Source: an uncultured Zetaproteobacteria bacterium (GTDB lineage Bacteria > Pseudomonadota > Zetaproteobacteria > Mariprofundales > Mariprofundaceae). Taken from it: a stretch of DNA of 55,291 nucleotides. The stretch lies in NCBI GenBank assembly GCA_964492105.1, contig CAZBJB010000001.1, positions 1 through 55,291 of the forward strand, written 5' to 3'. This document shows positions 1-53,553 of the stretch, in pieces. The notes under the pieces are model-generated. The model was not told the origin of the DNA. It made no database searches and was given only the letters and a program-made list of their open reading frames with translations. How positions within the stretch are numbered: position 1 is the first letter of the stretch; each line of letters opens with the position of its first letter. The position numbers and the translations under genes are program-made.

Positions 1-1986
1 ATTGTGCCCGCTACTCACCGTCCCCGTGGCGTAACTGTTGCTGATGGTACTGGTGCTGTTGGTACTACTACCATTTTTCCCCACCAGCCCGCCAACATAA
101 GCGGCATTGCTCCCGCCATTCACCGCGCCCGTGGCGTAACTGGCACTGATGGTGCCGTAATTACCTCCCGCCAGCCCGCCAACATGAGTGCTTACCCATA
201 TTCCGCTCACCGCGCCCGTGACGTAGCTGGCGCCGATTGCGCCGTAATTATCTCCCACCAGCCCACCAACATAGCCCTTCCCTTTCACACTGCCGCCCAC
301 CAACCCGATATTGCGGAGGATGGATCCGGAACCTGTATCCCCAAACAATCCGACGTCACCTGCTGAGGATCTGTTGATGGTCAGCCCGCTGATGGTGTGA
401 CCCAGCCCATCAAGGATACCGGTAAATTTGGTCGTTGGATTACCGACAGGGGCGAAGCCCTTGCCGGAATTCCAGCTACTGGTGCCACCGGCAGCAATAT
501 CGCTTCCCAGCGCATAGTCACCACTCAGGTTTCCACTCATGCCTTGCAGGTCGGTTCCTGTCGTGCTGCCTGGCGCACCCAGGCTCGTGATCACGGTGTA
601 GTTTGTGAGCGCCCCGCCGGAACCCAGTTTAGTGCTGAAGTTGTTTCCCGCCGGTAAAGTGACAGGGGCATTCACATGATACGCGCCGGTGCCACCGTTC
701 GCGCTGCTCTGGCCGTATTCCAGTGCCAGGCCAGCGGCGCCGGAGCCGTTCATGGCGCTGTTGATATTGATGTCGTTTTGTGCATTCAAGGTAAGCTTGT
801 TCGCATTCCATACGACGATATCGTTCACATTGATATCACCGGCGGTGCCGCTGGCACCACTGGTACTCGCAATGGCTACATTACCTCCAACAAGACTGGT
901 GGACAGCGTACTGCCCGTCATATCACCGCCGCTGGCGGCAATGGTGAAGTCAACCGGATCGATCAGCCACTGACCACTTTTCCCATTACTGGCTTTTGTG
1001 GTGACATGGAGATGGTTGGCGATGCTGACGTGCGCAGCACTGGTCTCGATAAAGCCGCCGTTGCCGCCATTCGGTGCACTGGCATCCAGCGTGCCGCCCA
1101 CATGGATGGCGTTATTGCCCATGCCGCCCTTCAGGTATATTTGTCCGTCCTTGCCGGTGACCAGTGTCCGGGCTTCAATGATGCCGGTCTGGTTAATCAC
1201 GGTGCTGGCCAGATCGCCGGCTGCCCGGGCGGTGAGGTACACGGTGCCGCCGTCGGCCCTGATGGCGCCGCCCTGCTGAATCAGTGCGTTGAGCGCACTT
1301 CGTTTGACTTGAATTTTAACCGGGCCACCCAGATCAAGCGTGACGTTGCTACCGGCCCCTAACAGCACATTGCCCCTGTTGGCGGTCAGCGCGCCCTGGT
1401 TGGTGATTTTAGCAGCAATCAAGGCAATGGTGCCGCCCCCGGCCGCCGTAATATGACCCTGATTGATAATGGCATTGTCACTATTGCCCTGAAACCGATA
1501 ACGGCCTGACATAAAATCGCGGGTGCTGATATTAAGGGTAGAGGCCACAAGACCGCCGACATTGACCTGTGCCGTCGGCGTGAACAACACGCCGTTGGGG
1601 TTAATCAGAAACACCCGGCCATTGGCGTTGATCGCACCCTGGATGACCGACACATTCGCACCGAGAACCCGGTTAAGGGCGACGGCACTGGAACCGGGCT
1701 GTACAAAATTGACGGTATGCCCCTTGCCGATACTGAAACTGTGCCAGTTAGCAGCCAGCCTTGCGCTGGTTTGCGAGACGGTCATGGTGGTGGCGGACTG
1801 ACTGATATGGCCGGATCCGGCCACGATGGTGCCGCCGGTGGGCAGGGCGGCGGCAAACGCCGAAGCCAGGGGAACCGTACAAAGTAAACCGGTTAACATG
1901 ACCAGGGGCAACAGGGTCATGCGCTTTCGTGAAGCACTGGTGGCGAGATCCTGCTTCGCGGGTCGACCAGCTAATCCTTGAATCAT
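1..1986 (-). CDS. Two-partner-secretion TpsA / filamentous-haemagglutinin-like exoprotein with GLUG-type repeats. Only the N-terminal part is present; the C-terminus lies beyond the left edge.
   Basis: Absent from the ORF track because there is no stop codon inside the window. The reverse-strand frame ending at nt 1 is open throughout in my own translation. It reads (MIQGLAGRPAKQDLATSASRKR)MTLLPLVMLTGLLCTVPLASAFAAALPTGGTIVAGSGHISQSATTMTVSQTSARLAANWHSFSIGKGHTVNFVQPGSSAVALNRVLGANVSVIQGAINANGRVFLINPNGVLFTPTAQVNVGGLVAST. That is a signal peptide plus a haemagglutination-activity (TPS) domain with the NPNG motif. Gly/Asn-rich beta-helix repeats follow. At nt 1-450 there are repeats of the form YVGGLVG.NYG.I.ASY.TGAV.G. 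The start is ATG at 1986 or at 1920. Confidence 0.85.
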   Translation of the reverse strand, partial: MIQGLAGRPAKQDLATSASRKRMTLLPLVMLTGLLCTVPLASAFAAALPTGGTIVAGSGHISQSATTMTVSQTSARLAANWHSFSIGKGHTVNFVQPGSSAVALNRVLGANVSVIQGAINANGRVFLINPNGVLFTPTAQVNVGGLVASTLNISTRDFMSGRYRFQGNSDNAIINQGHITAAGGGTIALIAAKITNQGALTANRGNVLLGAGSNVTLDLGGPVKIQVKRSALNALIQQGGAIRADGGTVYLTARAAGDLASTVINQTGIIEARTLVTGKDGQIYLKGGMGNNAIHVGGTLDASAPNGGNGGFIETSAAHVSIANHLHVTTKASNGKSGQWLIDPVDFTIAASGGDMTGSTLSTSLVGGNVAIASTSGASGTAGDINVNDIVVWNANKLTLNAQNDININSAMNGSGAAGLALEYGQSSANGGTGAYHVNAPVTLPAGNNFSTKLGSGGALTNYTVITSLGAPGSTTGTDLQGMSGNLSGDYALGSDIAAGGTSSWNSGKGFAPVGNPTTKFTGILDGLGHTISGLTINRSSAGDVGLFGDTGSGSILRNIGLVGGSVKGKGYVGGLVGDNYGAIGASYVTGAVSGIWVSTHVGGLAGGNYGTISASYATGAVNGGSNAAYVGGLVGKNGSSTNSTSTISNSYATGTVSSGHN

Positions 1987-2254
1987 CCTTCCGCAAACGA
2001 CCTTCAACCCGCCCCGTTCGGACACGACCGGACTCCGCTTCACCCCGGGACGCAAAACACCACCCTCACCGGTTATCCGGTGCGAATAGTATCCCCGTGC
2101 CAAGGTCGTTCCTGCCGCCACTATTTCCTCCGAAAAGATCATTTGCAACCGAATCCAGTGGTAGCCTCAAGGGTAACGCGTATATAATCAAAAAGCAATA
2201 CTGTTATCCAGAACCCGACGTTGGCATACGGCGCATGTCACAACCCTTTAATTT

Positions 2255-2467: not shown

Positions 2468-3850
2468 TCACATCAATGCTTCAGCGGACAGCACCGTGGT
2501 TCTGTTCGTAAAGTTTTTCAGACCGGTACCACTGAGGGTGCCGGTCGGATCCGTAATCTTCTCATTATCGAATACCAGATTCAGATCAAAGTTTTGATAC
2601 AGCTTGTATACGGCGGCAAGCTGAAACTTTTGCGAACTGATATCCCCCGCGGCCAAACCTTTAAACCGCTTGTAGCCGTAACCGATACCAACCAGGAACC
2701 TGTTGACGGGTTCAATTTCGGTACGGATCGAATAGGCGTTGAACGTGTTACCCGCGGTATTAAACTTTCCGGTCATATCCATTGCACTACCGAAACCCGG
2801 TTCTCCCGGCATGCCGGGAGAACCATAAAAGTTACCGGCGCCGCTCGCGCTGGTACGGCCCGCGGCGTGTGCCCAGTCGCCATAAACACCCACGCTCATG
2901 TCATGAATCTCGCCCTGGAGTTGTACGTCGACAAACTGGAGGTTCATCGGTATCCGGGCATTTTCAAGCTTAACACCCATATTGGGTTTATTCAGGAAGC
3001 CGGAGCTGGTTGTTCCACCCGTTCCTCCCTTGCCTGCGGTGCCGGTCACATAGCCGAAGCCAATCAGCGTATCCCAGTCACCAACATTCAGGGTCGCCAC
3101 GGCACGCAACAGGTATCCCCATCGGGTACCCAGATTGCTGACGCCCGTGGTTTCTCCCGCAGGTGCAACCATGGCAAGCTGGATATAACCGAGATTCTTG
3201 TAGCGCACCCATGCGCCGAGACCCGTGGTCATTTTTGAAAAACCGGCGGCCTGAATGGCGGAAACATCCTTACCCGACAGTTTATCGCCACGGTGTCCGA
3301 ATACATTGGAGACTTCCATGGCGCTGGATGCACCCCATGGCGATTTGTGAGCACCCAGCCCGACCTGGAAATCGTCATTGATCCGAACGGAATTCAACAG
3401 TAGCCAGACAGGCGTGGGATTCATATTCTTGAATGAATTCCCATCAGCTCCACCCGTGAACATGATGAAGGCGCCCGTATGTTTACCGATACGCCCCGCA
3501 ATAAAGAGCCTGGCGCTGTCCGGTATATTATAGGTGGTGGTGGACGCTGCCCCGTCACCCGTCGTATGGGTTGCGGTTGCGACGACATCCATGCTCATGT
3601 TCAGCACCGTCGGGATGGACAGGTTATCATCCTCGACCAGCGCCTCATCACCCACATCGGTGAATGAATTGAACATGAATTCGCGACCGAAAGCGTTCAA
3701 GGCCGGAAAGGTCTGGAAATGACAGCTCAGGCAGGCTGCGCCGGTCTGGCGCGCAAATGCCGGAAGCGCCTCGGCCCTGCCTGGCAACAACGCAATACCG
3801 GATACCACAAGCAGAGCAAAAGCAGCAGTTGTAAGAAACATTTTCTTCAT
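2468..3850 (-). CDS. Cyc2-like fused monohaem cytochrome c / outer-membrane beta-barrel porin
   Basis: ORF 2468..4039, trimmed to the ATG at 3850, which is preceded by GGGAGGAAATTTAACACT (GGAGG RBS). It has a Sec signal, MKKMFLTTAAFALLVVSGIALLPGRAEA. A single CXXCH follows within LPAFARQTGAACLSCHFQTFPALNAFGREF. The remaining roughly 400 aa contain no cysteine, are rich in Gly/Thr/Asn/aromatic residues and look like a porin. Confidence 0.7.
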   Translation of the reverse strand: MKKMFLTTAAFALLVVSGIALLPGRAEALPAFARQTGAACLSCHFQTFPALNAFGREFMFNSFTDVGDEALVEDDNLSIPTVLNMSMDVVATATHTTGDGAASTTTYNIPDSARLFIAGRIGKHTGAFIMFTGGADGNSFKNMNPTPVWLLLNSVRINDDFQVGLGAHKSPWGASSAMEVSNVFGHRGDKLSGKDVSAIQAAGFSKMTTGLGAWVRYKNLGYIQLAMVAPAGETTGVSNLGTRWGYLLRAVATLNVGDWDTLIGFGYVTGTAGKGGTGGTTSSGFLNKPNMGVKLENARIPMNLQFVDVQLQGEIHDMSVGVYGDWAHAAGRTSASGAGNFYGSPGMPGEPGFGSAMDMTGKFNTAGNTFNAYSIRTEIEPVNRFLVGIGYGYKRFKGLAAGDISSQKFQLAAVYKLYQNFDLNLVFDNEKITDPTGTLSGTGLKNFTNRTTVLSAEALM

Positions 3851-4215
3851 AGTGTTAAATTTCCTCCCATATGTTGGCTCGGTTAAGCAGTTCGAGCCTT
3901 TATTTATCTTCTCCCCTGTTTCCAGACTTCCCTTCGACCTGCTCAAGCCATCCGTTTGCCGGCTTACAAGCAGGGAAAATACGGATCCCTTCGGGAGAAT
4001 CGGGGAGACGCTGCCGATGCTTGGCTGTAGAGTCAACATCCGGCATGTCCATGTGTGGCATTTCGTTACATGTTATACATACCTGGCATGGAAATATCAA
4101 AAACATTGTCAGGACAGTAAATTTCAGATTTATACCGGGTATCATGCAAGGCTTGTTCAATACCCTGAATCCCATAAACAGGAATATGGCCCGTAAGCAT
4201 TCCCGGATACGGGAA

Positions 4216-5523
4216 CTATTCCCCCAGCTTTCGGTACAGAGTGGAAAGGCCAATGCCAAGACGTCGACTGGTCTCTTCCTTGTCTCCGTTGCAGACCTTA
4301 ATCATTTGCAGGATCAAACCACGCTCAAAATTGACCGTTGCTTCCGCCAGCTTCGTTTCCTTTCCGCCGGCACGGATGTTCCGTGGTGGAATATCCAATT
4401 TACCGTTGCCGGCCAGCAGTAGCGCTCGTTCCAGTGTGTTTCCCAGTTCACGCGCATTGCCGGGCCAGTCCTGCACCTGGAGCCACAGGCATTGCCGCGC
4501 ATCCAGCGGGTCAACCCTGATTGCTTTATCCGCAGTGAGTTTTTCCAGCATGGAAACGGCCAGGGGCGCGATATCTTCCCGGCGCTCACGCAGGGGCGGG
4601 ATGCGTATATGGAGAATATCCAGGCAAAAGTATAAATCCTCCCGGAAGCGGCCCTGGCGGGTCTCGCCCCTGAGATCCTTGTTCGCGGCGGCGATGATCC
4701 GTGCATGGAAGGGATGTTTTCGCGTATCGCCCAGCGGTCGGAAATAGCCGTCATCCAGCACATGCAATAATCCGGCCTGTATGACCAGGGGTAATTCGTT
4801 GATTTCATTCAGAAACAATGTTCCGTTGCCCGCCATGGATAACAGGCCTTCACGATCCCGCTCCGCACCCGGGAATGCCCCCCGTTTGTAACCAAACAGT
4901 TCGCCTTCCATCAATTCACCGGAAATGGATGAACAATTAAACTGGATGAAGGGTTCTGCGTCACGATCACCGGCCATATGGATAAGGCTTGCCAGCCTTC
5001 TCTTGCCCACGCCTCTTTCTCCCTGAATCAACACCGGCGACCGCGTGGCGGCGGCTTTTCCCGCCATGTAGCGAACATGGCGCATGGTCTGCGAATCGCC
5101 CATGGAGGCCAGTGCCCCTTCGTCCCTCAGAATGGTGGTCATATTTTCCAGCCTCTGTTCCAGTTTGATCTTTTCATTGAGGCGCTTCAGCCGTGCCAGC
5201 AGTTCATCAAAGCGTATGGGTTTGGAGATATAATCATAGGCGCCGTTTTTTAGCGCCTGATCGGCAATATCCCTGTTACCAAATGCCGTCATCAGGATGC
5301 ATGGCACCGGATTATCGCGAGACTGGATATCGCGCAGTAAGTCGAAAGCATCGCCATCAGGCAAACGGATATCACTCAGAATTGCATCTATATCTTCGCC
5401 TGCAAGCTGATCACAGGCGCTTCGCAAGCTGTCCGCTTCCAGCATGCCATAACCTTCCTCAGCCAACATTTCCACGATACCCCGGCGGATGTGGCGTTCA
5501 TCCTCGACAATGAGTATGTTCAT
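4216..5523 (-). CDS. Sigma-54-dependent Fis-family response regulator (NtrC class)
   Basis: Receiver domain MNILIVEDE...LSDIRLPDGDAF. AAA+ core GERGVGKRRLA, a GAFPGA loop, LFLNEINELP and RIPPLRERREDI. C-terminal Fis-type HTH ETSRRLGIGLSTLYRKL. The ATG at 5523 overlaps the kinase stop (ATGA). Confidence 0.9.
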   Translation of the reverse strand: MNILIVEDERHIRRGIVEMLAEEGYGMLEADSLRSACDQLAGEDIDAILSDIRLPDGDAFDLLRDIQSRDNPVPCILMTAFGNRDIADQALKNGAYDYISKPIRFDELLARLKRLNEKIKLEQRLENMTTILRDEGALASMGDSQTMRHVRYMAGKAAATRSPVLIQGERGVGKRRLASLIHMAGDRDAEPFIQFNCSSISGELMEGELFGYKRGAFPGAERDREGLLSMAGNGTLFLNEINELPLVIQAGLLHVLDDGYFRPLGDTRKHPFHARIIAAANKDLRGETRQGRFREDLYFCLDILHIRIPPLRERREDIAPLAVSMLEKLTADKAIRVDPLDARQCLWLQVQDWPGNARELGNTLERALLLAGNGKLDIPPRNIRAGGKETKLAEATVNFERGLILQMIKVCNGDKEETSRRLGIGLSTLYRKLGE

Positions 5524-7016
5524 GCGGCCATCTCCGATGGCAGCCATGTACGAAAATGACTGCCATTTTGATCGCTGTGCGCCAGTTCGAGCCGGCCATG
5601 CATGCGTTCCATCAATTCGCGACTGATGGCGAGCCCGATCCCGCTTCCCGAGTGGCCTGGCTTGGTGGTAAACATGGGTTTGAAAATGTCCTCCTGAAGG
5701 TCCAATGGAATGCCGGATCCATTATCACACACGTTGATTGCGATACCGTCATCCAGATTTTCAGTCATCAATTCCACACGACCATCCTCCCCGCAGGCAT
5801 CCATGGCATTCAGCAACAAATTGACCAGTACCTGGCGTAACATGGATGCATTGGCCATCACGGGTGCCGGGGATGCCCTGAATACAGTTTCAAGTTTCAG
5901 CCGTTTCTGGTGGGGAGACATGCGCGCCAGCATCATCGCACTTCGAGCGACTGTTTCGATATGGATATGTGTCGTGTCTGATTCCGCGCCTGTTTTTCCA
6001 TAATCGAGAATATCGCGAATAATCGTTTCCGTACGCGACAATTCACTCATGGCTATCCGTACGCGCTCAGCGGCATCTTCACTTTGCCCCCGATCCAGTT
6101 TGCGCAAGGCCGTTTCGAGAGCAACCGATGCGCCCGCCAGCGGATTACCCACCTCATGGGCGATGCCCGCGGCCATCAGCCCCAACGCGCGCATTTTCTC
6201 ATGGTGAGCGGCCATGTTACGGGTATGGTTCAATTTGGTTTCCCGCTTCCGCAGAGCCTCACCCATCAGATTGCAGGCAAGGGCCAGCTCGCCCAGCTCA
6301 TCCATGGGGAGCGCAGGGCAATAAATATTGAAATCGCCATCTCCGATCTTTTTCAACTCGCGGCGAAGAGACGCCAGCGGGCGAACCATGTGCAGGTAAA
6401 GGTAAGCGGTGAATCCCGCAAGCAAGAACCACAGGGCAAGGATGGAAAACAAAAAATCGTTCCGCATGTCCATGCGCATAACAGACATCATGCGCATGGC
6501 CGCATTCACGCGTTGATCCAGCTTATGATGTCGTGCGGACAGATTCTTCGAGGCCTTATCGACGATATCATCAATCTCGCGCATCAGGATTGGACCCTCA
6601 AGGTTACTGGAAGAAAACGGTAAAGAGAAAACCTGCCTGGCCCTGGATGTGACACCCTCCAGCGTACGGGTAAGTTGCATGCTGACGGACTGTCCTGAAT
6701 ATTCCCGGTGAAGGGTCGCGGCCATTGCAGCACGGTTGACTTCAAATATTCTTCGCTGGCGCCAGTCACCATCGATGAGAAACGAGCGGACGGGTCTAAT
6801 CGTGTGAACCAGATCCATTTCCAGATCATGCAGACGATGACTTTCGTGATTAACGGCTTCAATGATCATGGCATCCCGATGCAGGGTATTGAAATCCCCG
6901 GTCATGTGCCAGCCAACATATGCAATCAGCGCAAACACCAGCGCAAGCCATCCGCCAATTTTCCATGCCAGCCGGGAACGCATGTCTGTTGATCTATTCC
7001 CTGGGAATATCGCCAT
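5520..7016 (-). CDS. Sensor histidine kinase (two TM segments, periplasmic sensor, HAMP, HisKA, HATPase)
   Basis: H-box AAGIAHEVGNPLAG, a HAMP-like segment LRRELKKIGDGDFN, N/G boxes LLLNAMDA and DNGSGI...GSGIGLAISRELM. An alternative start is M12 at 6983. Confidence 0.88.
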   Translation of the reverse strand: MAIFPGNRSTDMRSRLAWKIGGWLALVFALIAYVGWHMTGDFNTLHRDAMIIEAVNHESHRLHDLEMDLVHTIRPVRSFLIDGDWRQRRIFEVNRAAMAATLHREYSGQSVSMQLTRTLEGVTSRARQVFSLPFSSSNLEGPILMREIDDIVDKASKNLSARHHKLDQRVNAAMRMMSVMRMDMRNDFLFSILALWFLLAGFTAYLYLHMVRPLASLRRELKKIGDGDFNIYCPALPMDELGELALACNLMGEALRKRETKLNHTRNMAAHHEKMRALGLMAAGIAHEVGNPLAGASVALETALRKLDRGQSEDAAERVRIAMSELSRTETIIRDILDYGKTGAESDTTHIHIETVARSAMMLARMSPHQKRLKLETVFRASPAPVMANASMLRQVLVNLLLNAMDACGEDGRVELMTENLDDGIAINVCDNGSGIPLDLQEDIFKPMFTTKPGHSGSGIGLAISRELMERMHGRLELAHSDQNGSHFRTWLPSEMAA

Positions 7017-7518
7017 GTCCGGCGATATATTTCAGTGCCCGAACGGTACCCGCGCCGGCCCATGAATAAGGGCCGATCACCCTGGTAATGATCTTTCCTT
7101 CACGGTTCATGACCAGTGTTTCGGGATATTTGAATACGCCCAGTTTCGGTGCTGCGATTGAAGCACCTCCCGGATCCCGGAATATGGGGAACGGGATTTT
7201 ATGACGATGGACAAAGGCTTTGACATCCTCAAGGTTTTTGTCCACGGACAAGCCGACCACCGTGAACTGATCCTTTGGCAAGATTTGACTTAACTTTATC
7301 AGATCCGGCATTTCCTTACGACAGGGCGGACACCACGTGGCCCAGACATTCAATATGATGACCCTGCCCCTGAACAATTCACGGCTATGGACGATGTTGC
7401 CTGAAAGATCATGCAGCGACATACCTGGAAGCATGTCTCCCTTGCCAACCACCTTGTGGGCAGCGTTACCGCATGAGGCCAGCAGTAGCATCAGTGCGAA
7501 CGGGAACGACTTTATCAT
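6994..7518 (-). CDS. TlpA/ResA-family periplasmic thiol:disulfide oxidoreductase (lipoprotein)
   Basis: Lipobox MIKSFPFALMLLLASC and thioredoxin motif WATWCPPCRKEMPDL. The ORF 6994..7641 is trimmed to the ATG at 7518. Confidence 0.85.
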   Translation of the reverse strand: MIKSFPFALMLLLASCGNAAHKVVGKGDMLPGMSLHDLSGNIVHSRELFRGRVIILNVWATWCPPCRKEMPDLIKLSQILPKDQFTVVGLSVDKNLEDVKAFVHRHKIPFPIFRDPGGASIAAPKLGVFKYPETLVMNREGKIITRVIGPYSWAGAGTVRALKYIAGHGDIPRE

Positions 7519-7578
7519 TCGGAAACGGAGGCCAGATCCTGAATCGTGCACCACCCTTTCAACATTCCGATCCGTATA

Positions 7579-7637
7579 TGATTCACGGATCGTCGAATCG
7601 CCGTGATGATTGCGCCTGCATTGCTGAACAATGCAGG
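7579..7637. repeat. Family C repeat fragment plus a 9-bp-stem hairpin
   Basis: ATGATTCACGGATCGTCGAATCGCCGTGATGATTGCGCCTGC matches the left arm of family C. It is followed by CCTGCATTG-CTGAA-CAATGCAGG, which abuts the ccdA stop. Confidence 0.65.
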
Positions 7638-8405
7638 TCAATGCCCCGGCAGAGTAAAGGCGCCGTCAAGATTTGCCAGTGCCGGAAACCACTGGGCCAG
7701 CCAACCGGACAGTATGCTGAAGCTTCCAATGAATATAAGTACGCCAACCATAATCAACAGTACGCCCGACACCTTTTCAACCACTGTCAAATATCGTTTG
7801 AACCTTTGCGACCAGCGTAAGAATGAGTCCGTGACAAGCGCCGCCAGTAAAAACGGAATCGCGAGTCCAAGTGAATAGGCGAAAAGCAGGAGAATACCAT
7901 GCGACAGATCGGCCTGGATACTCGCAACCGCGAGAATCGCACCGAGAATGGGGCCGACGCAGGGCGTCCAGCCAAAGGCGAAAGCAGCGCCCAGTATCAG
8001 TGCGCCAATACCATGCCTGGCATTGATGCCCCTGGCCTCAAAGCGGGTGTCCATCATCAGCAGCGGGATACGTATCAGACCCGTGTAATGTAATCCGAAT
8101 ATGACAATGATGGTCCCGGCAATTTTACCGAGTACGTTCATGTGAGCCAGCAGCCATTGGCCCAGGAGTGTTGCCGATATCCCCAGCGCGATAAAGACCA
8201 GACTAAAACCTGCAATGAACCACACCGATTGCATCAGGGCACGCCTTCTTGCCGAAGCCGCGCGCCCCCCTTCATGCTGGCGAAGCTCGTTGACTGATAC
8301 GCCGGAAATATACGACAGGTACGCAGGCACCAGCGGCAATACGCATGGTGACAGAAACGATAATAGTCCGGCAATCAAGGCACCGATCAATGTGACTTCA
8401 ACCAT
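7638..8405 (-). CDS. ccdA: Cytochrome c biogenesis protein CcdA (DsbD-core thiol-reductant transporter)
   Basis: Polytopic membrane protein with the two conserved Cys motifs FLSPCVLPLVPAYL and GWTPCVGPILGAIL. The ATG at 8405 is preceded by an AGGAG RBS. Confidence 0.85.
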   Translation of the reverse strand: MVEVTLIGALIAGLLSFLSPCVLPLVPAYLSYISGVSVNELRQHEGGRAASARRRALMQSVWFIAGFSLVFIALGISATLLGQWLLAHMNVLGKIAGTIIVIFGLHYTGLIRIPLLMMDTRFEARGINARHGIGALILGAAFAFGWTPCVGPILGAILAVASIQADLSHGILLLFAYSLGLAIPFLLAALVTDSFLRWSQRFKRYLTVVEKVSGVLLIMVGVLIFIGSFSILSGWLAQWFPALANLDGAFTLPGH

Positions 8406-8580
8406 TCCACACTCCTGATACTGGATATTGACATGCGGCGCACGCCGCAACCCTTTGATTTGCCTGGCATTCCGAAAAATCACTCATCATCAATGAGGTG
8501 AATACATGATTGTTCGAAACGCCATGCAAACCAGATACTTACACCCTGCATCCAATGCCAATGTCAGATCCTGGGTTGAA

Positions 8581-11139
8581 TTACAATTTTGCCGTACGTA
8601 GCCTGAGCGCATTGGTGATGACCGATACCGAACTGAAGCTCATCGCGGCCGCTGCGATGATCGGTGACAATAGCAACCCGAATACGGGATACAGCACCCC
8701 GGCGGCAATGGGCACACCGGCCGAATTGTACACAAACGCAAAAAACAGGTTCTGGCGGATGTTTTTCATCGTTGCGCGTGACAGCCTGCGGGCACGTACA
8801 ATGCCGGTCAGATCACCCTTAACGAGGGTGATCCCGGCGCTTTCCATGGCCACGTCCGTACCCGTGCCCATGGCAATGCCGACATGCGCCTGCGCCAATG
8901 CCGGCGCATCGTTAATGCCATCGCCAGCCATGGCCACGATCCTGCCTTCATCCTGTAGTTGCCTGATGACCGCAGCCTTCTGATCGGGCAAAACATCCGC
9001 CTCGAAGCGGTCAATGCCCAGCTTCGCCGCCACGGCGGTTGCGGTATTATGATTGTCTCCGGTCAGCATCATCACTTCGATGCCCTCTCCGTGTAATGCC
9101 TTGATGGCATCGGACGTGGACGCCTTGACCGGATCGGAAACCCCCAGCAAGCCCACCAGTTGTCCGTCCATGGCAACATACATAACCGTTTCACCACCAC
9201 GCTGGTGTTCCTCTACCTCGGCCCGGACAGTGTCTGTTTCAACATTGTTATCCCGCATCAGTTTGGCGTTGCCCAGCAGGATGACATGACCGTCCACCAT
9301 CGCGCGCACACCCTTACCGATTGTGGCCGAGAAATTCTCAACCCCTCGCAGCACCAGAGTCCGCGTTGTTGCGGCACGAACGATGGCCTCCGCCAGGGGG
9401 TGTTCACTGGCTCGTTCAATACTGGCCGCCAGACACAACAGCTCGTCTTCAGGCATGTCGCCTGTTGCCCGGACGGTGGTTACGGCCGGCTTGCCTTCGG
9501 TCACGGTGCCGGTCTTGTCCACCACGACCATATTCACCTTCTCCATGATTTCCAGTGCTTCGGCATTCCTGATCAGTACACCGGCGGTGGCGCCGCGACC
9601 GGTTCCAACCATGATGGAAATCGGTGTGGCCAACCCGAGCGCGCAGGGACAGGCGACAATCAGCACCGCCACCGCATTGATGATGGCATGCGCCAGCCTG
9701 GGCTCCGGTCCGATAAAAAACCATACGGCAAAGGAGATCAGGGCCGCACTGACCACGGCCGGCACAAAATACCCGGCGACGGTATCGGCCATCTTCTGAA
9801 TCGGTGCCCGCGAGCGCTGAGCCGCGGCGACCATGTTCACGATTTGTGACAACAGCGTGTCCGCGCCCACCTTCTCGGCACGCATCAGCAGCGAACCATG
9901 ACCATTAACCGTGGCGCCAATCAACTGTTCCCCGACAAACTTCTCCACCGGAACAGGTTCGCCGGTAACCATTGATTCATCGACATGGCCCTCGCCCCCG
10001 GTCACGACCCCGTCCACGGGCACCTTTTCGCCGGGACGGATACGCAGAATATCTCCTGCCTGCACCTCTTCCATGGGTACGTCGGTTTCAGCACCGTCCG
10101 CATGGACGCGCCGGGCTGTTTTCGGCGCCATGCCGAGTAGCAGTTTGATGGCTTCATTGGTGCGCGATCTGGCACGCAGCTCCAGCACCTGGCCGAGTAG
10201 CACCAACGCGGTGATCACCGCTGCGGCTTCGAAATAGACATCGACCAGCCCACCCTTCCGCATCAGCGGTGGAAATATTTCCGGCAACACCAGCGCAACC
10301 ACGCTATAAATCCAGGCCACGCTTACGCCGAGGCCGACCAGCGTAAACATATTCAGATTCCAGGTTTTGATGGACAGGGCAAAGCGCTCGAAGAACGGCC
10401 ATCCGCCCCACAGCACCACCGGCGTAGCCAATACAAATTCAGACCATTGCACCGCGTGCATGGAGAATCCCTCTGGCAGCCAGCCGGGGACAAGGTCGGC
10501 GACCATGGCCAGCAGAAAGAGGGGTACGGCCAGCGCCGTGCTGATCCGGAAACGCCTGGTCATGTCGATGAGTTCAGGATTTTTTTCTTCACCGGTTACC
10601 GTACGTGGTTCCAGCGCCATACCGCACTTCGGGCAATTGCCCGGCGCATCGCTGATGACCTCCTGATGCATGGGGCAAAAGTATTCGGTTTTCCGGGACA
10701 GCCGAGGCACCGCCATCGGTTCCAGCGCCATACCGCATTGTTTGCAGATGCCTGCCCCCTTCTGTTCCTGACCGGGGCACATCGGACAAAAATACATGGC
10801 TCCGGTATCATCGGCCGGAGGATGAGCTCCCGTGGATTTGGCGGCATGATGGTGTTCACACACCTGACCTTTGTTCACGTAAGCCGGCGGATTCGCCGAG
10901 AACTTGTCCAGGCACCCTTTACAACAAAAACGGTAGCTTTTATCGGCATGCCGGGTGCGATGGGGGGATTCGGGTTTGACATGCATGCCGCATACCGGAT
11001 CGATGGTGAACTGGTCGGGTTCGGATTTAAACTTTTGCACACATCGGGCGCTGCAAAAGAGCCACGTATGCCCGTCATATTCCATACCATGGGGTGAATC
11101 ATCCTGGACTGTCATTCCGCAAACAGGATCAATATTCAT
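8581..11139 (-). CDS. copA: Cu(I)-translocating P1B-type ATPase with an N-terminal array of 2 YHS/TRASH and 2 CPxC..CPxCGM metal-binding modules
   Basis: Motifs: [10 protein letters not shown] (TM6), [24 protein letters not shown] (TM7), [11 protein letters not shown] (TM8). The N-terminus carries DPVCGM twice, then [18 protein letters not shown] and [16 protein letters not shown]. The ATG at 11139 is preceded by AAGGAGAG. Confidence 0.92.
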
Positions 11140-11166
11140 GGTTTCTCTCCTTGATGTGGTTCGCAT

Positions 11167-30039: not shown

Positions 30040-30993
30040 ATGACGCAGGACATACGTGCCATGCCGCCGGGAGCCGAATGGATACTCACCCACCGTACGC
30101 CATGCGCGCTGGTGGCTGTGTTCATGTTTGGCATGGCGCTGTGGCTTGCGGGAACGGCGTTTTCCATTCCGCTGCTGGCACTGCACTTGCTGACGCCAGC
30201 GCTGTTTGCCCTGATTACGCTGGGCGGCGGTGTGGTGTTTGGAGTACAGGTGGCCGTGCTGGCTGCCGTCTTGGTGAGCCTGGCCGCACGGGCATCGCTG
30301 GCGCCGGGGCTCATGTTGCTGATGCTGTATGGTCTGCTGCCCATCCTGTCGGCAGCCAGCCTGAACGGGCAGGGCGGTATGTCCAAAAGTGCACAGCGTC
30401 TGGCCATCGGCCTGGGAGCAATCATGCTGGCCACCCTGATTGCGGGTGCGGTGATTCAGGATGTAACGGCCAGGGTGCTTGTCGGACAAGGGTTGTCACC
30501 CCTGTTTGACGCCATGCGGGGACAACGGGCAATGGCTGCGGAATTGTTTGCCCGCGTCCGCAACATAACCGTATGGATATTCCCCGGCCTCATGGCGCTG
30601 AGCCTGTGGATCGTCTGGTGGAGCAACGTGCTGCTGGCACGTAGTATTGCCGTATACTACGGTTTCTTCCGGGGCGATATACAGCCGGCCAACGCCTTAC
30701 GGCTGAACGCGAAGATTGCATACCTGTTTCTGGCACTCGCCGCCGTGGGTGCCGTGGCGCAGGGAACAGTGCAGTACCTCGCGGTTAATGTGGATCTGTT
30801 GATCGCCGGTCTGTTGTCCGCGCAGGGGCTGGCCGTCGCGCATAGATGGTTACAGGTACGGCGGATGCAGGTGCTGGCCGTACTGATGTATATCGTGCTG
30901 TTGATGCAGCCGGTGACGTTATTACCCTTTGCCGTGATAGGGTTGTTTGATATCTGGTTTGATTACCGCCGGAACATGCCGCCGGCAAAGTGA
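30040..30993 (+). CDS. DUF2232-type polytopic membrane protein (conserved between rpsR and rplI)
   Basis: A hydrophobic protein with 8-9 predicted TM segments. Its position is typical of betaproteobacterial rpsF operons. The ATG at 30040 is the first ATG in ORF 29977..30993. Confidence 0.7.
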   Translation: MTQDIRAMPPGAEWILTHRTPCALVAVFMFGMALWLAGTAFSIPLLALHLLTPALFALITLGGGVVFGVQVAVLAAVLVSLAARASLAPGLMLLMLYGLLPILSAASLNGQGGMSKSAQRLAIGLGAIMLATLIAGAVIQDVTARVLVGQGLSPLFDAMRGQRAMAAELFARVRNITVWIFPGLMALSLWIVWWSNVLLARSIAVYYGFFRGDIQPANALRLNAKIAYLFLALAAVGAVAQGTVQYLAVNVDLLIAGLLSAQGLAVAHRWLQVRRMQVLAVLMYIVLLMQPVTLLPFAVIGLFDIWFDYRRNMPPAK

Positions 30994-49362: not shown

Positions 49363-49598
49363 TTGCAACATAAACGGGCAGCATGGCGTCCACCCCGGCC
49401 CCCCCTCCTGGTGATGCGGATTTATCCGGCGTATTGCAGGGCGGCGGGCACGGGAGTTATTTGCCATTTTGAATATATTTATGGCATCATGTTTTTGTAT
49501 CGATTTATACCCTGCCGCCCGGAAACACCCCTTTCCATTTCTTGCCGTGCCTCTCAACAAATTATGGGAACTGTGATCAGACAGGGACTATACGGGCC

Positions 49599-52500
49599 GT
49601 GATTTTCCTGCATGTTTCCTTCCGCGACGGCGTCCCCTGGCTCTGGGGCGAGCAGGATCGTGCGACCCGGGACAAGGCGCTGAGGCCCTGCTGCTATGAT
49701 CCCGGCATCAAGGGGCTGCGCGCCGCACTGAAACAGCTTGCTCCCGACATCAGCATGCTGAAGCGCAACACGTCCAGCGCAACAATCTGGCTCCCGTCAC
49801 GGGGCGATACCCCCATTCCCTCATCGTCGATGATCGGGCCATCCCCCGATCTCAGAAGGAAAGTGGCCATCAGGCCGCATGTTGTGCTGGTGCGAACATT
49901 GTCGCTGGAAGAATTGCTGGAACTGGTGTCCCTTGCCGATTCCGGGGCGCATGCCAATGCCGGAATCCTGTTCGGAACCTCCTTTTTATGGTGTAGCCGC
50001 CTGTTGGCCATGGCGCTGAATATCATGGTCAAAGAGAACTTCCTGCCCGGCTTGATCCATGGCGGCGACGGGTATGAAGCGCGCTGGCTTCCGGCGCCTG
50101 ACGAGGATGACGAGCGGAATCTCGCCGCACTGGCATCAAGCATGCCCGGCACCTGCCGCTGTATGGGGGATGCACCGGATGCTCCGCCGGAAACCCATCC
50201 CCGCCAAACGATGAATCTTTTGCTGGTGCGCATGGTGGACGCAGTGGTGCGGCGCGCCAATACACCCGGACCCCTGCAACAAACCAGGCGCCATGCCAGT
50301 GTGCATGATGCATGGATGGCGGCGCTGGTCTCAGCGGATGCCACGGTGCGGTGGAAAGATTCCGGGGATTTACAAACCTTTGCACGGGAACTGGCCCGCT
50401 GGCGGCGACCGGTCGATCTGGTGGCGAAATCACCGTTCAAGTTCGCTTTTCGCCTGGCGGAGCCCGGTGATGGCGCCCCGGAGGATGCCGCCGACGCGTG
50501 GCGGGTGGATTACCTGCTGCAACCCAAGAGCGATCCGAGCCTGATGATCCCCGTATCTGAATTGTGGCGGACGGACAAACGCACTGTGGCACAGTTGAAG
50601 GAATTTGGCTCCGACGCCACCGAATTCCTGCTGACGGCGTTGGGACAGGCGGCGGGTCTCTGCCCCGAAGTGGCGGCAAGCCTGAAGGTACGGAATCCGG
50701 ATGGATTTATGTGTAATGCCGCCGGCGCCTGTCGCTTTCTGCAGGAACAGGCGCAGGCGTTGCGTTCCGCGGGCTTTGTCGTGCTGTTGCCGTCGTGGTG
50801 GGTGGGCCATGGGGCGGTGGGGCGCTTAAGCCTCACGGCCAGGGCGAAGACCCCCGTGATGCAGGGAGCAGGCGATCTGACGCTGGATGCCATGATTCAA
50901 TTCGATCTGGCGGCTTCACTGGGCGATGATAAACTGGATATCACTGAACTACGCCGGCTGGCGTTGCTGAAAGCGCCGCTGGTGCGGGTGCGTGGCCAGT
51001 GGACGATGATCGACGCCGATGAAATCAAACGTGCGGTTCGTTTTCTGGAACGGCAGCAGCAAGAGTCCACGACGGCCCGCGACCTGATTGCGATGGCGCT
51101 TGGATCGGAAAAGAAAGTCGGCAGCCTGCCAGTGACAGCGGTGGAAACCCATGGGTGGCTGGATGATCTGCTGTCAACGCTTACCGGCAAGCAGGATTTT
51201 GAAACGCTCTCCCAGCCCGGTCAGTTTGCGGGCCAGCTTCGCCCCTATCAGGAACGAGGCTATTCATGGCTCGCCTTTCTGCGCCGATGGGGATTAGGCG
51301 CTTGCCTGGCGGATGATATGGGGCTTGGGAAAACGGTGCAGACGCTGGCTCTTATCCAGCGTGAGCGCGAGGCGGGCGAGCAGCGTCCGGTGTTGCTGGC
51401 TTGCCCCACCTCGGTCATCAACAACTGGCGCAAGGAAGCGGAGCGGTTTACCCCGGATCTGTCCGTGCTGGTGCATCATGGTCCCGACCGCAGGCGGAAG
51501 GGTGCATTCGCCAGATCCGCCACAAAACACGCGCTGGTGATTTCCAGTTACGCCCTGCTGCAACGGGATATTGATTTTCTGAAGGATATCGATTGGGCCG
51601 GCGTGGTGTTGGATGAGGCGCAGAATATCAAGAATCCGGAGAGTAAACAGTCCAGGGCTGCTCGTGGCATCAAGGCGGACTACCGGATCGCTCTGACCGG
51701 TACGCCAGTGGAAAACCATGTCGGGGATTTATGGTCACTGATGGATTTTCTCAATCCGGGCTTGCTTGGCAGCCAAAACGGATTCAAACAAGCCTTCTAC
51801 AAGCCAATTCAGGTATGGCGCGATACGAATGCTGCCGCGCGACTCAAACAACTGACGGCGCCCTTTATTCTGCGTCGGATGAAGACGGATCGTTCCATTA
51901 TCAGCGATTTGCCGGACAAGATTGAACAGAAGGCATACTGTACGCTGACCCGCGAGCAGGCCTCATTGTATCAGGCCGTGGTCGAGGATATGCAGCAGCG
52001 GCTGGAGCAGGCATCGGGCATTGAGCGGCGCGGACTGGTGCTGGCCACCTTGTCCAAACTCAAGCAGGTCTGCAATCACCCGGCTCAGTTCATGGGTGAT
52101 GCCTCCGGGCTGGCCGGTCGTTCCGGCAAGCTCGCACGCCTGCATGAGATGCTGGAAGAGATCAGGGAAGCTGGTGAACGAACGCTTGTTTTTACCCAGT
52201 TCTCGACCATGGGCGGGATGTTGCAACGCTATTTTCAGGACCAACTTGGCGAGGAGGTGTTATTTTTACATGGTGGCGTTGCCAGGAAGCAGCGCGACGC
52301 CATGATTGAGCGTTTTCAGCAGGATGCGGATGCACCGCATCTTTTCGTTCTGTCGCTCAAGGCTGGCGGTACGGGGCTGACGCTGACGCGGGCCAACCAC
52401 GTGGTACATTTCGATCGGTGGTGGAATCCGGCTGTGGAGAATCAGGCTACGGATCGCGCCTTTCGCATTGGCCAGCGCCGCAATGTGCAGGTGCACAAAT

Positions 52501-52664
52501 TCATCGTTGCCGGAACGCTTGAGGAGCGGATTGATGAGATGATCGAACAGAAAACAGGTATCGCCGCGCAGGTGATAGGCAGTGGCGAGCAGTGGCTCAC
52601 CGAACTGAGCAATAACGAACTGCGGGACATGATCAGCCTCAGCCGCGATGCCGTGGGAGAATAA
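49599..52664 (+). CDS. SNF2-family (HelZ-like) helicase with a long N-terminal domain of unknown function
   Basis: LRPYQERGYSWLAF, motif I DDMGLGKT, motif II LDEAQNIKN, motif III LTGTPVEN, and a helicase-C region LKAGGTGLTLTRANHVVHFDRWWNPAVENQATDRAFRIGQ. The N-terminus VIFLHVSFRDG..WLWGE is typical of this family, so I prefer the GTG at 49599 over the TTG at 49542. Confidence 0.88.
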   Translation: MIFLHVSFRDGVPWLWGEQDRATRDKALRPCCYDPGIKGLRAALKQLAPDISMLKRNTSSATIWLPSRGDTPIPSSSMIGPSPDLRRKVAIRPHVVLVRTLSLEELLELVSLADSGAHANAGILFGTSFLWCSRLLAMALNIMVKENFLPGLIHGGDGYEARWLPAPDEDDERNLAALASSMPGTCRCMGDAPDAPPETHPRQTMNLLLVRMVDAVVRRANTPGPLQQTRRHASVHDAWMAALVSADATVRWKDSGDLQTFARELARWRRPVDLVAKSPFKFAFRLAEPGDGAPEDAADAWRVDYLLQPKSDPSLMIPVSELWRTDKRTVAQLKEFGSDATEFLLTALGQAAGLCPEVAASLKVRNPDGFMCNAAGACRFLQEQAQALRSAGFVVLLPSWWVGHGAVGRLSLTARAKTPVMQGAGDLTLDAMIQFDLAASLGDDKLDITELRRLALLKAPLVRVRGQWTMIDADEIKRAVRFLERQQQESTTARDLIAMALGSEKKVGSLPVTAVETHGWLDDLLSTLTGKQDFETLSQPGQFAGQLRPYQERGYSWLAFLRRWGLGACLADDMGLGKTVQTLALIQREREAGEQRPVLLACPTSVINNWRKEAERFTPDLSVLVHHGPDRRRKGAFARSATKHALVISSYALLQRDIDFLKDIDWAGVVLDEAQNIKNPESKQSRAARGIKADYRIALTGTPVENHVGDLWSLMDFLNPGLLGSQNGFKQAFYKPIQVWRDTNAAARLKQLTAPFILRRMKTDRSIISDLPDKIEQKAYCTLTREQASLYQAVVEDMQQRLEQASGIERRGLVLATLSKLKQVCNHPAQFMGDASGLAGRSGKLARLHEMLEEIREAGERTLVFTQFSTMGGMLQRYFQDQLGEEVLFLHGGVARKQRDAMIERFQQDADAPHLFVLSLKAGGTGLTLTRANHVVHFDRWWNPAVENQATDRAFRIGQRRNVQVHKFIVAGTLEERIDEMIEQKTGIAAQVIGSGEQWLTELSNNELRDMISLSRDAVGE

Positions 52665-52665
52665 G

Positions 52666-53553
52666 ATGGCCCGATATGACTGGTATTACACGCCCGCCAG
52701 GCCGAAGGCGGTGAAAGGCGGCATCAAGGCGCAGAGTAAGCGCGGCGCATTTTCCACCAAGTGGTGGGGCAAGCGCTGGATTCAGACGCTGGAAGGCTTT
52801 CGTATTGGCGCGCGCCTGTCGCGGGGCCGCGCCTATGCCCGCAAGGGGCAGGTGGCCAGCCTGGATGTTGAACCGGGAGAAATTCAAGCCAGGGTTCAGG
52901 GGTCCCGCCGAGGTGCCTACAGGGTGTCCATCAAACTGGCCATATTGAACGCCGAACAGTGGCGGAAAGTCGCGGATCGGATTAGCGAAGAGCCAATCTT
53001 CGCCGCCTTGCTGCTGGGCGGTGAAATGCCTGAAGATATTGAGCGGATTTTCTCCGATGCCGGGGCGCCATTGTTTCCCGTGCGTCAGCATGACCTCGAT
53101 ACCGATTGTTCCTGTCCGGACTGGTCCAACCCTTGCAAGCATATTGCCGCCGTCTATTACCTGCTGGCGGAAGCGTTTGATCAGGATCCGTTCCTGCTGT
53201 TCAGACTGCGCGGCATGGATCGGGATGTGTTCCTGGATCGCTTACGCTCAGCCGGGTCGGACGAACAGATAACAGAGGAAGCCTTCCCTCAGTCCGAATC
53301 AGATCCGTTGCCGCTGGATCACGACGCATTCTGGGGCAAGGAGGCCCTGATGCCGGAGGGCGAAGCAACAGCCAATCTTCCGGCCCTGCATGCGGCGATT
53401 CCGAGACGGTTGGGAACACTCCCGTTCTGGAGGGCGGAACGTGATTTCATCAAGGGAATGGAAGCATTTTATTGCCATGTCTCCGCTCTGGCGCTGTCGC
53501 TTGTGGAACAGGATCGCGCCAACACGGATGGAAACTTCTCCGACGCGGTCTGA
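52666..53553 (+). CDS. SWIM zinc-finger protein
   Basis: The CxCx(n)CxH motif DCSCPDWSNPCKHIAAVYYLL. The ATG at 52666 is 2 nt after the SNF2 stop and is preceded by GGGAGA. Confidence 0.85.
   Translation: MARYDWYYTPARPKAVKGGIKAQSKRGAFSTKWWGKRWIQTLEGFRIGARLSRGRAYARKGQVASLDVEPGEIQARVQGSRRGAYRVSIKLAILNAEQWRKVADRISEEPIFAALLLGGEMPEDIERIFSDAGAPLFPVRQHDLDTDCSCPDWSNPCKHIAAVYYLLAEAFDQDPFLLFRLRGMDRDVFLDRLRSAGSDEQITEEAFPQSESDPLPLDHDAFWGKEALMPEGEATANLPALHAAIPRRLGTLPFWRAERDFIKGMEAFYCHVSALALSLVEQDRANTDGNFSDAV

Follow-up and report, generated by a model that had tools for sequence, protein, structure and literature searches.

The gene at positions 2468–3850 (minus strand) of a contig from an uncultured Zetaproteobacterium, CAZBJB010000001.1, raises two questions: whether its product is a Cyc2-family iron oxidase of the outer membrane, and whether the two-component system that lies beside it marks it as a copy under separate control. 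The stretch that we analysed, referred to here as the window, is 55,291 nucleotides long. A preliminary description made from the DNA letters had taken the gene for a Cyc2-like fused cytochrome-porin, and this interpretation is borne out: the protein shows each of the published features of Cyc2 that could be tested. We consider that the gene product is almost certainly a member of the Cyc2 family, and we put the probability that it is both a family member and an Fe(II) oxidase at roughly 0.8.

The published criteria for Cyc2 (Keffer et al., 2021, PMC8406198; McAllister et al., 2020) call for a signal peptide; one CXXCH and no more; the motif AXPXFAR[Q/K][T/Y]; a PXL motif four residues after the CXXCH; a length of at least 365 residues; a blastp E value of 1e-5 or lower against a known Cyc2; and a 16-strand porin resembling OprO/OprP. 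The coding sequence in the window specifies 460 amino acids plus a stop codon, as a monohaem cytochrome c fused to a 16-strand porin, and an identical protein has been called at 460 residues on two other public contigs. Its N-terminus, read directly from the sequence, is that of a typical Sec substrate: MKK is followed by a hydrophobic core and by a cleavage-type site between AEA and LP, where signal peptidase I is predicted to cut, giving a signal peptide of residues 1–28 (MKKMFLTTAAFALLVVSGIALLPGRAEA; 3767–3850, minus strand, as are all features of the gene given below). M1, K2, K3, P23 and A28 are invariant or nearly so in an alignment of 79 homologs. From residue 28 the sequence runs ALPAFARQT-GAA-CLSCH-FQTF-PAL, in which ALPAFARQT (residues 28–36; 3743–3769) matches the Cyc2-specific motif, CLSCH (residues 40–44; 3719–3733) is the single N-terminal haem c attachment site, and PAL (residues 49–51; 3698–3706) is the PXL motif, four residues past the CXXCH. 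C40 and C43 are the only cysteines of the protein. The mature part is rich in glycine (13.2%), threonine (8.8%), asparagine (6.5%) and aromatic residues (10.4%).

The gene has its own ribosome-binding site, GGAGG (3863–3867), 12 nt 5' of the ATG, of which GAGG is invariant across seven orthologous loci. Beyond the stop codon, at a distance of 31 nt, there is an intrinsic-terminator-like hairpin (2416–2437) with a 9-bp stem (seven G-C pairs), a 4-nt loop and the T-rich tail TCTGTTTGAT. The signal peptide, the single CXXCH, the cysteine-free and Gly/Thr/Asn/aromatic-rich remainder, the ribosome-binding site and the terminator had all been claimed in the preliminary description, and all were found. 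That description also reported that the protein ends in ...LSAEALM, which is correct, and considered this odd for an outer-membrane protein, which it is not: the last residue is methionine in 58 of the 79 homologs, leucine in 18 and phenylalanine in only 3. Judged from these sequences, a non-aromatic C-terminus is a trait of the clade.

A search of a large protein collection returned 273 homologs at E≤1e-3, and all of the named ones are from Mariprofundus or other Zetaproteobacteria. Because the sequence features described above are conserved over hundreds of homologs, they are not due to chance. One of the homolog clusters (P0064) includes Cyc2PV-1 of Mariprofundus ferrooxydans PV-1 (P0121; AKN78226.1), and BLASTP against this protein gave 46% identity over 423 aligned residues, that is nearly the full length, with an E value of 4e-113. 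The haem domains are nearly identical, with the shared sequence AxPAFARQTGAACLSCHFQTFPALNAFGR and the same GAA spacing between ALPAFARQT and CLSCH. The two proteins also share the signal peptide, the one-haem N-terminal domain, the 16-strand barrel and a non-aromatic C-terminus (...EFEGLL in Cyc2PV-1), and both are Zetaproteobacterial. Cyc2PV-1 has been expressed; it was found to reside in the outer membrane and to be a haem-binding protein that oxidises Fe(II), with an Em of 208 mV (Keffer et al., 2021; PMC8406198).

Within the alignment, whose members extend down to 38% identity, exactly one CXXCH is present in all 79 homologs and 75 of them have only two cysteines. The AXPXFAR[Q/K][T/Y] motif occurs at the equivalent position in 77 of the 79. 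P30, A31, F32, R34, Q35, T36, C40, C43 and H44 are invariant, and P49 and A50 nearly so; the strict pattern C..CH....P.L matches 51 of the 79.

The curated family databases were silent on this protein. A Pfam scan gave only a sub-threshold match to DUF3693, an NCBIfam scan gave no match, no porin family of either collection was matched even at E≤10, and nothing above noise came from searching the sequences of the PDB. For Cyc2PV-1, too, NCBIfam gives no match, and this protein is recorded without a Pfam domain. The models are therefore missing, and the empty results are uninformative on family membership.

The structure was predicted with AlphaFold2 from the 79-sequence alignment, strands were assigned with DSSP, and the fold was compared with the PDB using Foldseek. 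The model has a mean pLDDT of 80.9 and a pTM of 0.80, with the barrel blocks mostly at 80–97. Residues 84–459 (2474–3601) are predicted to form a β-barrel of 16 strands, the last of which (residues 446–459) closes the barrel. Short turns of two to four residues follow strands 2, 4 and so on to 14, and long loops alternate with them, at residues 132–147, 171–207, 231–244, 273–303, 331–368 and 434–445. Porins usually show this pattern, with the N- and C-termini in the periplasm, and it would bring the haem domain to the barrel's periplasmic mouth, the position proposed by Keffer et al. (PMC8406198). The third loop (171–207) has 37 residues and contains short helices, like loop L3 of porins.

Foldseek matched the barrel to 16-strand porins, with BpsOmp38, PorB, OmpT, Omp32 and OmpF at E values of about 1e-11. 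Over OprO (4RJW), OprP (2O4V), OmpF, PorB, Omp32 and BpsOmp38 the E values range from 1e-11 to 1e-8 and the query-normalised TM-scores from 0.41 to 0.47. The best TM-score, 0.47, was to OprO, which Keffer et al. had also given as a structural match (PMC8406198). These general and phosphate-selective porins share the long helix-containing third loop; they differ in having no haem domain and in sequence, all matches being at approximately 10% identity. The likeness is thus at the level of the fold only, and membership of a classical Pfam porin family was rejected.

The same matches can be cited for a rival interpretation, namely that the protein acts as a plain diffusion porin without redox function and that its N-terminal CXXCH is a relic or a coincidence: its barrel resembles those of OmpF, PorB, Omp32 and OprO, and no curated cytochrome family matches it. 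However, it matches no Pfam porin family either, C40, C43 and H44 with the flanking Cyc2-specific motif are kept without change throughout the alignment, and among characterised proteins its nearest relative is a haem-binding Fe(II) oxidase (PMC8406198). We regard a plain porin as extremely improbable. The multihaem porin-cytochrome complexes MtoAB, PioAB and MtrCAB also serve iron metabolism by moving electrons across the outer membrane with a barrel and a c-type cytochrome, but they consist of a separate porin of 26 strands and a ten-haem cytochrome. With one polypeptide, one CXXCH and 16 strands, the protein in the window is not such a complex.

A scan of genomes, using one genome per species, found 300 related loci, of which the best 80 were examined for taxonomy. 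Nearly all of these 80 are from Zetaproteobacteria or Mariprofundaceae, and the nearest, at 85% identity, is from a metagenome-assembled genome (MAG) of an uncultured Zetaproteobacterium. To our knowledge, the Zetaproteobacteria are a class known only as iron oxidisers. A bootstrapped neighbour-joining tree, built from 67 full-length sequences, places the window protein in an 18-member Zetaproteobacterial clade that includes Cyc2PV-1; the outgroups in Nitrospirae, Thermodesulfobacteriota and Deltaproteobacteria are set off from the Zetaproteobacterial sequences by a long branch. The Cyc2 interpretation of the preliminary description is upheld, and its suggestion that the host may oxidise Fe(II) is reasonable, given that the closest genomic relatives are Zetaproteobacteria or Mariprofundaceae.

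McAllister et al. assign Cyc2PV-1 and the Cyc2 proteins of Zetaproteobacterial isolates to Cluster 1. Placement of the window protein in Cluster 1 follows from our tree, which is a surrogate, being built by a distance method and from sequences that include no Cluster 2 or Cluster 3 references. By description, the protein also resembles the Cyc2 of Acidithiobacillus ferrooxidans (Cluster 2) and Cyt572 of Leptospirillum (Cluster 3), which belong to the same family and have the same fused cytochrome-porin design. Both have been shown experimentally to be Fe(II) oxidases (PMC8406198, PMC7029218); they differ from the window protein in coming from acidophiles and in belonging to other phylogenetic clusters.

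The gene product would most probably function in the oxidation of dissolved Fe(II) at the outer membrane. We envisage that Sec exports the precursor, which would be cleaved after AEA at residue 28, and that one haem c is then attached covalently to C40 and C43, with H44 as an axial ligand, as the invariant CXXCH suggests; attachment has been demonstrated for Cyc2PV-1 (PMC8406198). In the model the barrel would be inserted in the outer membrane with both termini periplasmic, and the haem domain of approximately 55 residues would sit at or in its periplasmic mouth. On the analogy with Cyc2PV-1, Fe2+ would enter the pore from outside and pass one electron to the haem, from which it would move to a periplasmic cytochrome and then to a terminal oxidase.

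We then consider the surroundings of the gene. Upstream of cyc2 on the same strand are, in order, an NtrC-family response regulator, a sensor kinase, a TlpA-like protein, a CcdA-like protein and a CopA-type ATPase. The response regulator (4216–5547) has a receiver domain (REC, PF00072), a sigma-54-interaction AAA+ domain (PF00158, 2.4e-54) and a Fis-type helix-turn-helix (PF02954), and it scores below every NCBIfam equivalog cutoff. The sensor histidine kinase (5520–7016) has two transmembrane segments, a periplasmic domain of approximately 150 residues, and HAMP, HisKA and HATPase domains. We found no significant family match for the periplasmic domain, and its motifs N..SH.LH.LE, F.LPF...N.EGPIL and RH are invariant in seven orthologs. 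It is a guess that the kinase senses Fe(II) or another metal through the SHxLHxLE region.

The next two genes encode a TlpA/ResA-like periplasmic thioredoxin (6994–7641; Pfam AhpC-TSA/Redoxin) and a CcdA/DsbD_TM thiol-reductant transporter (7638–8483; Pfam DsbD_TM). The pair is syntenic in five other loci (L003, L004, L005, L008 and L027). It likely supports reduction of the CXXCH cysteines of apocytochromes, or maturation of cuproproteins; its connection to cyc2 is inferred, and we count the presence of these cytochrome-maturation-type genes in favour of the identification as Cyc2. The CopA-type P1B ATPase (8581–11166) carries two YHS (YHS/TRASH) and two HMBD domains at its N-terminus.

This arrangement is not peculiar to the window. 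The response regulator lies directly upstream of cyc2 in nine loci (the window, L001–L005, L007, L008 and L027), as it does on the two other contigs with the identical protein, and the nine usually also have the kinase, TlpA, CcdA and CopA nearby. The ATPase remains in the neighbourhood despite rearrangement: in the window and L003 it is upstream of cyc2, in L005 and L007 downstream. In the neighbour-joining tree the regulator-linked cyc2 genes are monophyletic with 95% bootstrap support.

Other cyc2 genes are differently placed. That of A. ferrooxidans is said to lie in the rus operon. The locus of Cyc2PV-1 has a divergent feoB upstream and a gene for a 258-residue lipoprotein downstream, whereas the window has the kinase and the NtrC-like regulator upstream, and downstream, directly after the cyc2 terminator, a TpsA-type exoprotein of two-partner secretion (1–2166, minus strand; TPS domain at E 6e-38, plus a GLUG repeat). 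The TpsA-type gene runs past the start of the window, and contig L082 has the same gene order. This lipoprotein gene comes after most of the Zetaproteobacterial cyc2 genes that are not linked to the regulator; it directly follows cyc2 in 34 such loci, the Cyc2PV-1-type locus among them, for example at L081 9435–10211 (plus strand; approximately 258 residues), L021 7732–8346 and L057 7448–8074. The 258-residue protein has the lipobox LNAC and faint, below-cutoff matches to NlpB/BamC and DUF3576, and could be an unrecognised partner of Cyc2. The gene was not found in the regulator-linked loci, nor anywhere in the 55-kb window, and a search of the window for the combination of feoB and lipoprotein gene seen in PV-1 was negative.

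Four MAGs contain a regulator-linked cyc2 together with a second copy (L005 with L011, L007 with L010, L002 with L019, and L001 with L042). The second copy is followed by the lipoprotein gene in L010 and L011; the lipoprotein gene was not found beside L019, and L042 is partial. From these comparisons, the gene in the window most plausibly belongs to a lineage of accessory paralogs.

Several of the results weigh against treating the protein simply as the Fe(II) oxidase of its host. It is a copy of the paralog type, in a context unlike that of Cyc2PV-1, with neither the lipoprotein gene nor an adjacent feoB. The clade that joins it to Cyc2PV-1 has a bootstrap value of only 69%. Relative to Cyc2PV-1 it has insertions of approximately 11 and 16 residues in the predicted extracellular loops 273–303 and 331–368, and with loops enlarged in this way the substrate or the conditions could differ. 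The structural check suggested in the preliminary description was also borne out in part: the 16-strand barrel is predicted as expected, but the placing of the haem domain as a plug within it is only putative, since residues 1–80 are poorly modelled (pLDDT 31–68). The direction of electron flow is not readable from the sequence, and Keffer et al. caution that Cyc2 homologs may serve other functions (PMC8406198).

A rival interpretation is that the protein is a true Cyc2, but that this regulated paralog does something different from everyday energy conservation with Fe(II), such as oxidation of a different form or concentration range of Fe(II), oxidation of another reduced metal, electron uptake under a particular stress, or a protective task connected with metal homeostasis, in response to a periplasmic signal. 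The subclade stands apart as a monophyletic group and comes with a kinase and regulator of its own, related MAGs hold both types of copy, and the second copy precedes the lipoprotein gene in two of them. The retention of the CopA-type ATPase through rearrangements, the larger loops (L5 and L6) and the conserved kinase motif with its His and Glu residues are all consistent with such a role, and published work records more than one cyc2 copy in some Zetaproteobacteria, with regulation yet to be resolved. On the other hand, the protein has exactly the haem-domain motifs of Cyc2PV-1, which argues for equal redox chemistry, no data point to another substrate, and accessory paralogs often differ in regulation or kinetics alone. 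We therefore judge a different role to be unlikely, and Fe(II) oxidation by an accessory Cyc2 remains our preferred interpretation.

Candidate regulatory elements lie in the 365-nt spacer between the response regulator and cyc2 (3851–4215), the conservation of which was assessed from seven orthologous intergenic regions. Immediately past the stop codon of the response regulator are two tandem 16-bp palindromes, TTCCCGTATCCGGGAA (4215–4200) and TTCCTGTTTATGGGAT (4184–4169), which span 4169–4215 on the minus strand, with their centres separated by 31 bp. The 55-kb window has no perfect TTCCC-N6-GGGAA other than the first of them. A strict regular expression finds the pair, at a spacing of 31–33 bp, in seven of the nine syntenic loci, and the other two have near-matches. 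The palindromes are candidate binding sites for the adjacent response regulator.

Approximately 140 nt downstream of the palindromes is a candidate sigma-70-type promoter (4008–4036, minus strand), with TTGACT as −35 (4036–4031), a 17-nt spacer and CAGCGT as −10 (4013–4008). In the seven intergenic regions neither the TTGA nor the three specified letters of CAnnnT (C, A and T) vary. A scan with the sigma-70 consensus found no promoter in this region, TTGACT-17-CAGCGT being below its threshold, so that the candidate is based on conservation alone. It would be followed by a conserved leader of approximately 150 nt (3851–4001, minus strand), the presumed 5' untranslated region, which has 65% mean identity over the seven loci and contains a hairpin, GGCTCG...CGAGCC, at about 3897–3875. 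RNAalifold on the seven sequences gave nine pairs with double changes, against 5.7±1.4 in shuffled alignments, and a covariation term of +1.52. We tentatively suggest that the leader folds, possibly with an extended helix of a pyrimidine arm and a purine arm; an Rfam search with it found no credible family. A further conserved element, resembling TGTGAC-N5-GACACA, is present at 4054–4070 (minus strand), with its centre approximately 61 nt upstream of the inferred transcription start. In the window itself its palindrome is weak (TGTAACGAAATGCCACA, four of eight pairs). It could be the site of a second regulator; a CRP/FNR-type site was considered and set aside because of this poor palindrome.

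In a more conventional arrangement, the NtrC-family neighbour would act as a canonical sigma-54 activator, with cyc2 transcribed from a −24/−12 promoter. Its AAA+ domain is a strong match, the tandem palindromes resemble enhancer sites, and the ortholog in L005 retains the canonical sigma-54-contact loop, GAFTGA. But L005 is the only one of the nine regulator-linked loci to do so. The loop is GAFPGA in the window and L001–L004, GAIPGT in L007 and GALPGT in L008, together seven of the nine, and GAFSGA in L027. Of the properties expected of an enhancer-binding protein, the regulator in the window thus has the AAA+ domain and lacks both an intact GAFTGA and a −24/−12 target promoter: no TGGCAC-N5-TTGCW element with GG and GC is present in the spacer, and none is conserved in the intergenic alignments. 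One nearby match was discarded for want of the −24 GG, and a second candidate, CGGCAA-N5-TGGCT, was dropped on finding its halves split by indels in the orthologous loci. Over the window as a whole, matches to the sigma-54 pattern are at the level of chance (35 observed, 39.4 expected).

A single perfect match to the sigma-54 consensus, TGGCACTGCACTTGCT, occurs in the window, but elsewhere, at 30176–30191 (plus strand), in or at the start of a DUF2232 open reading frame between rpsF and rplI. By our own estimate approximately 0.05 perfect matches are expected by chance in 55 kb, and this site, which counts in favour of the canonical activator, hints that the organism uses sigma-54.

There is a precedent for a regulator of this kind. 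Caulobacter NtrC lacks the GAFTGA motif and acts at sigma-70 promoters (PMC12421884). The regulator in the window resembles it in having REC, AAA+ and Fis-type domains, an altered loop and no −24/−12 element at its presumed target. They differ in target gene and signal, and in that the lineage of the window regulator mostly has a single-residue variant of the motif, with one ortholog that keeps it. With a conserved TTGAC-17-CAnnnT element at cyc2 in place of a −24/−12 promoter, we think it improbable that the regulator drives cyc2 as a canonical sigma-54 activator.

The palindromes, the TTGACT-17-CAGCGT element and the degenerate loop together fit a sigma-70 promoter that depends on an activator, here an NtrC-like protein that has become uncoupled from sigma-54. 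In such a circuit the periplasm-sensing kinase would activate the response regulator, which would bind the two TTCCC-N6-GGGAA sites and switch cyc2 on from a weak sigma-70-type promoter, without sigma-54. That cyc2 transcription is under the control of the adjacent kinase and NtrC-like regulator is a proposal that we make tentatively, at somewhat short of even odds. The broader proposal, that the kinase, the NtrC-like regulator with GAFPGA and cyc2 form a module that represents, in one subclade of the Zetaproteobacteria, an accessory Cyc2 paralog under separate regulation, is likewise possible rather than probable on present sequence comparisons.

Two other groups of genes in the window may be mentioned. 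Between 11306 and 20564 (minus strand) is a set of genes of carbon-storage and fermentation type, in a presumed autotrophic iron oxidiser: these encode a glycogen-phosphorylase-like protein, an isoamylase/GlgX-like protein, a protein with a glutamate-synthase domain, a phosphoketolase (XFP) and an acetate kinase. At 49542–53553 (plus strand) a SNF2-family helicase with a DUF3670 domain is followed by an overlapping gene for a SWIM zinc-finger protein, a recurrent gene pair. The remaining genes in the window are housekeeping genes.

A Cyc2 in a Zetaproteobacterium is expected, and the modest added novelty is a Cyc2 lineage that is paired with its own kinase and response regulator. McAllister et al. 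described cyc2 as "potentially regulated" and called for tests of its regulation; our search of a literature library found no relevant paper linking Zetaproteobacterial cyc2 with sigma-54 or with a two-component system. As Cyc2 is the main marker gene of neutrophilic microbial iron oxidation, a clear Cluster-1-type Cyc2 marks the host of this contig as a probable iron-oxidising Zetaproteobacterium, which is useful, if expected. The proposed circuit, if true, would be the first concrete sensor-regulator circuit put forward for a neutrophilic iron oxidase, and would bear on the questions of whether cyc2 is regulated and whether its transcripts report activity. If the pairing does reflect regulation, environmental counts of cyc2 transcripts may mix constitutive and inducible paralogs, and the kinase would offer a tractable entry to the signal that controls expression of the iron oxidase.

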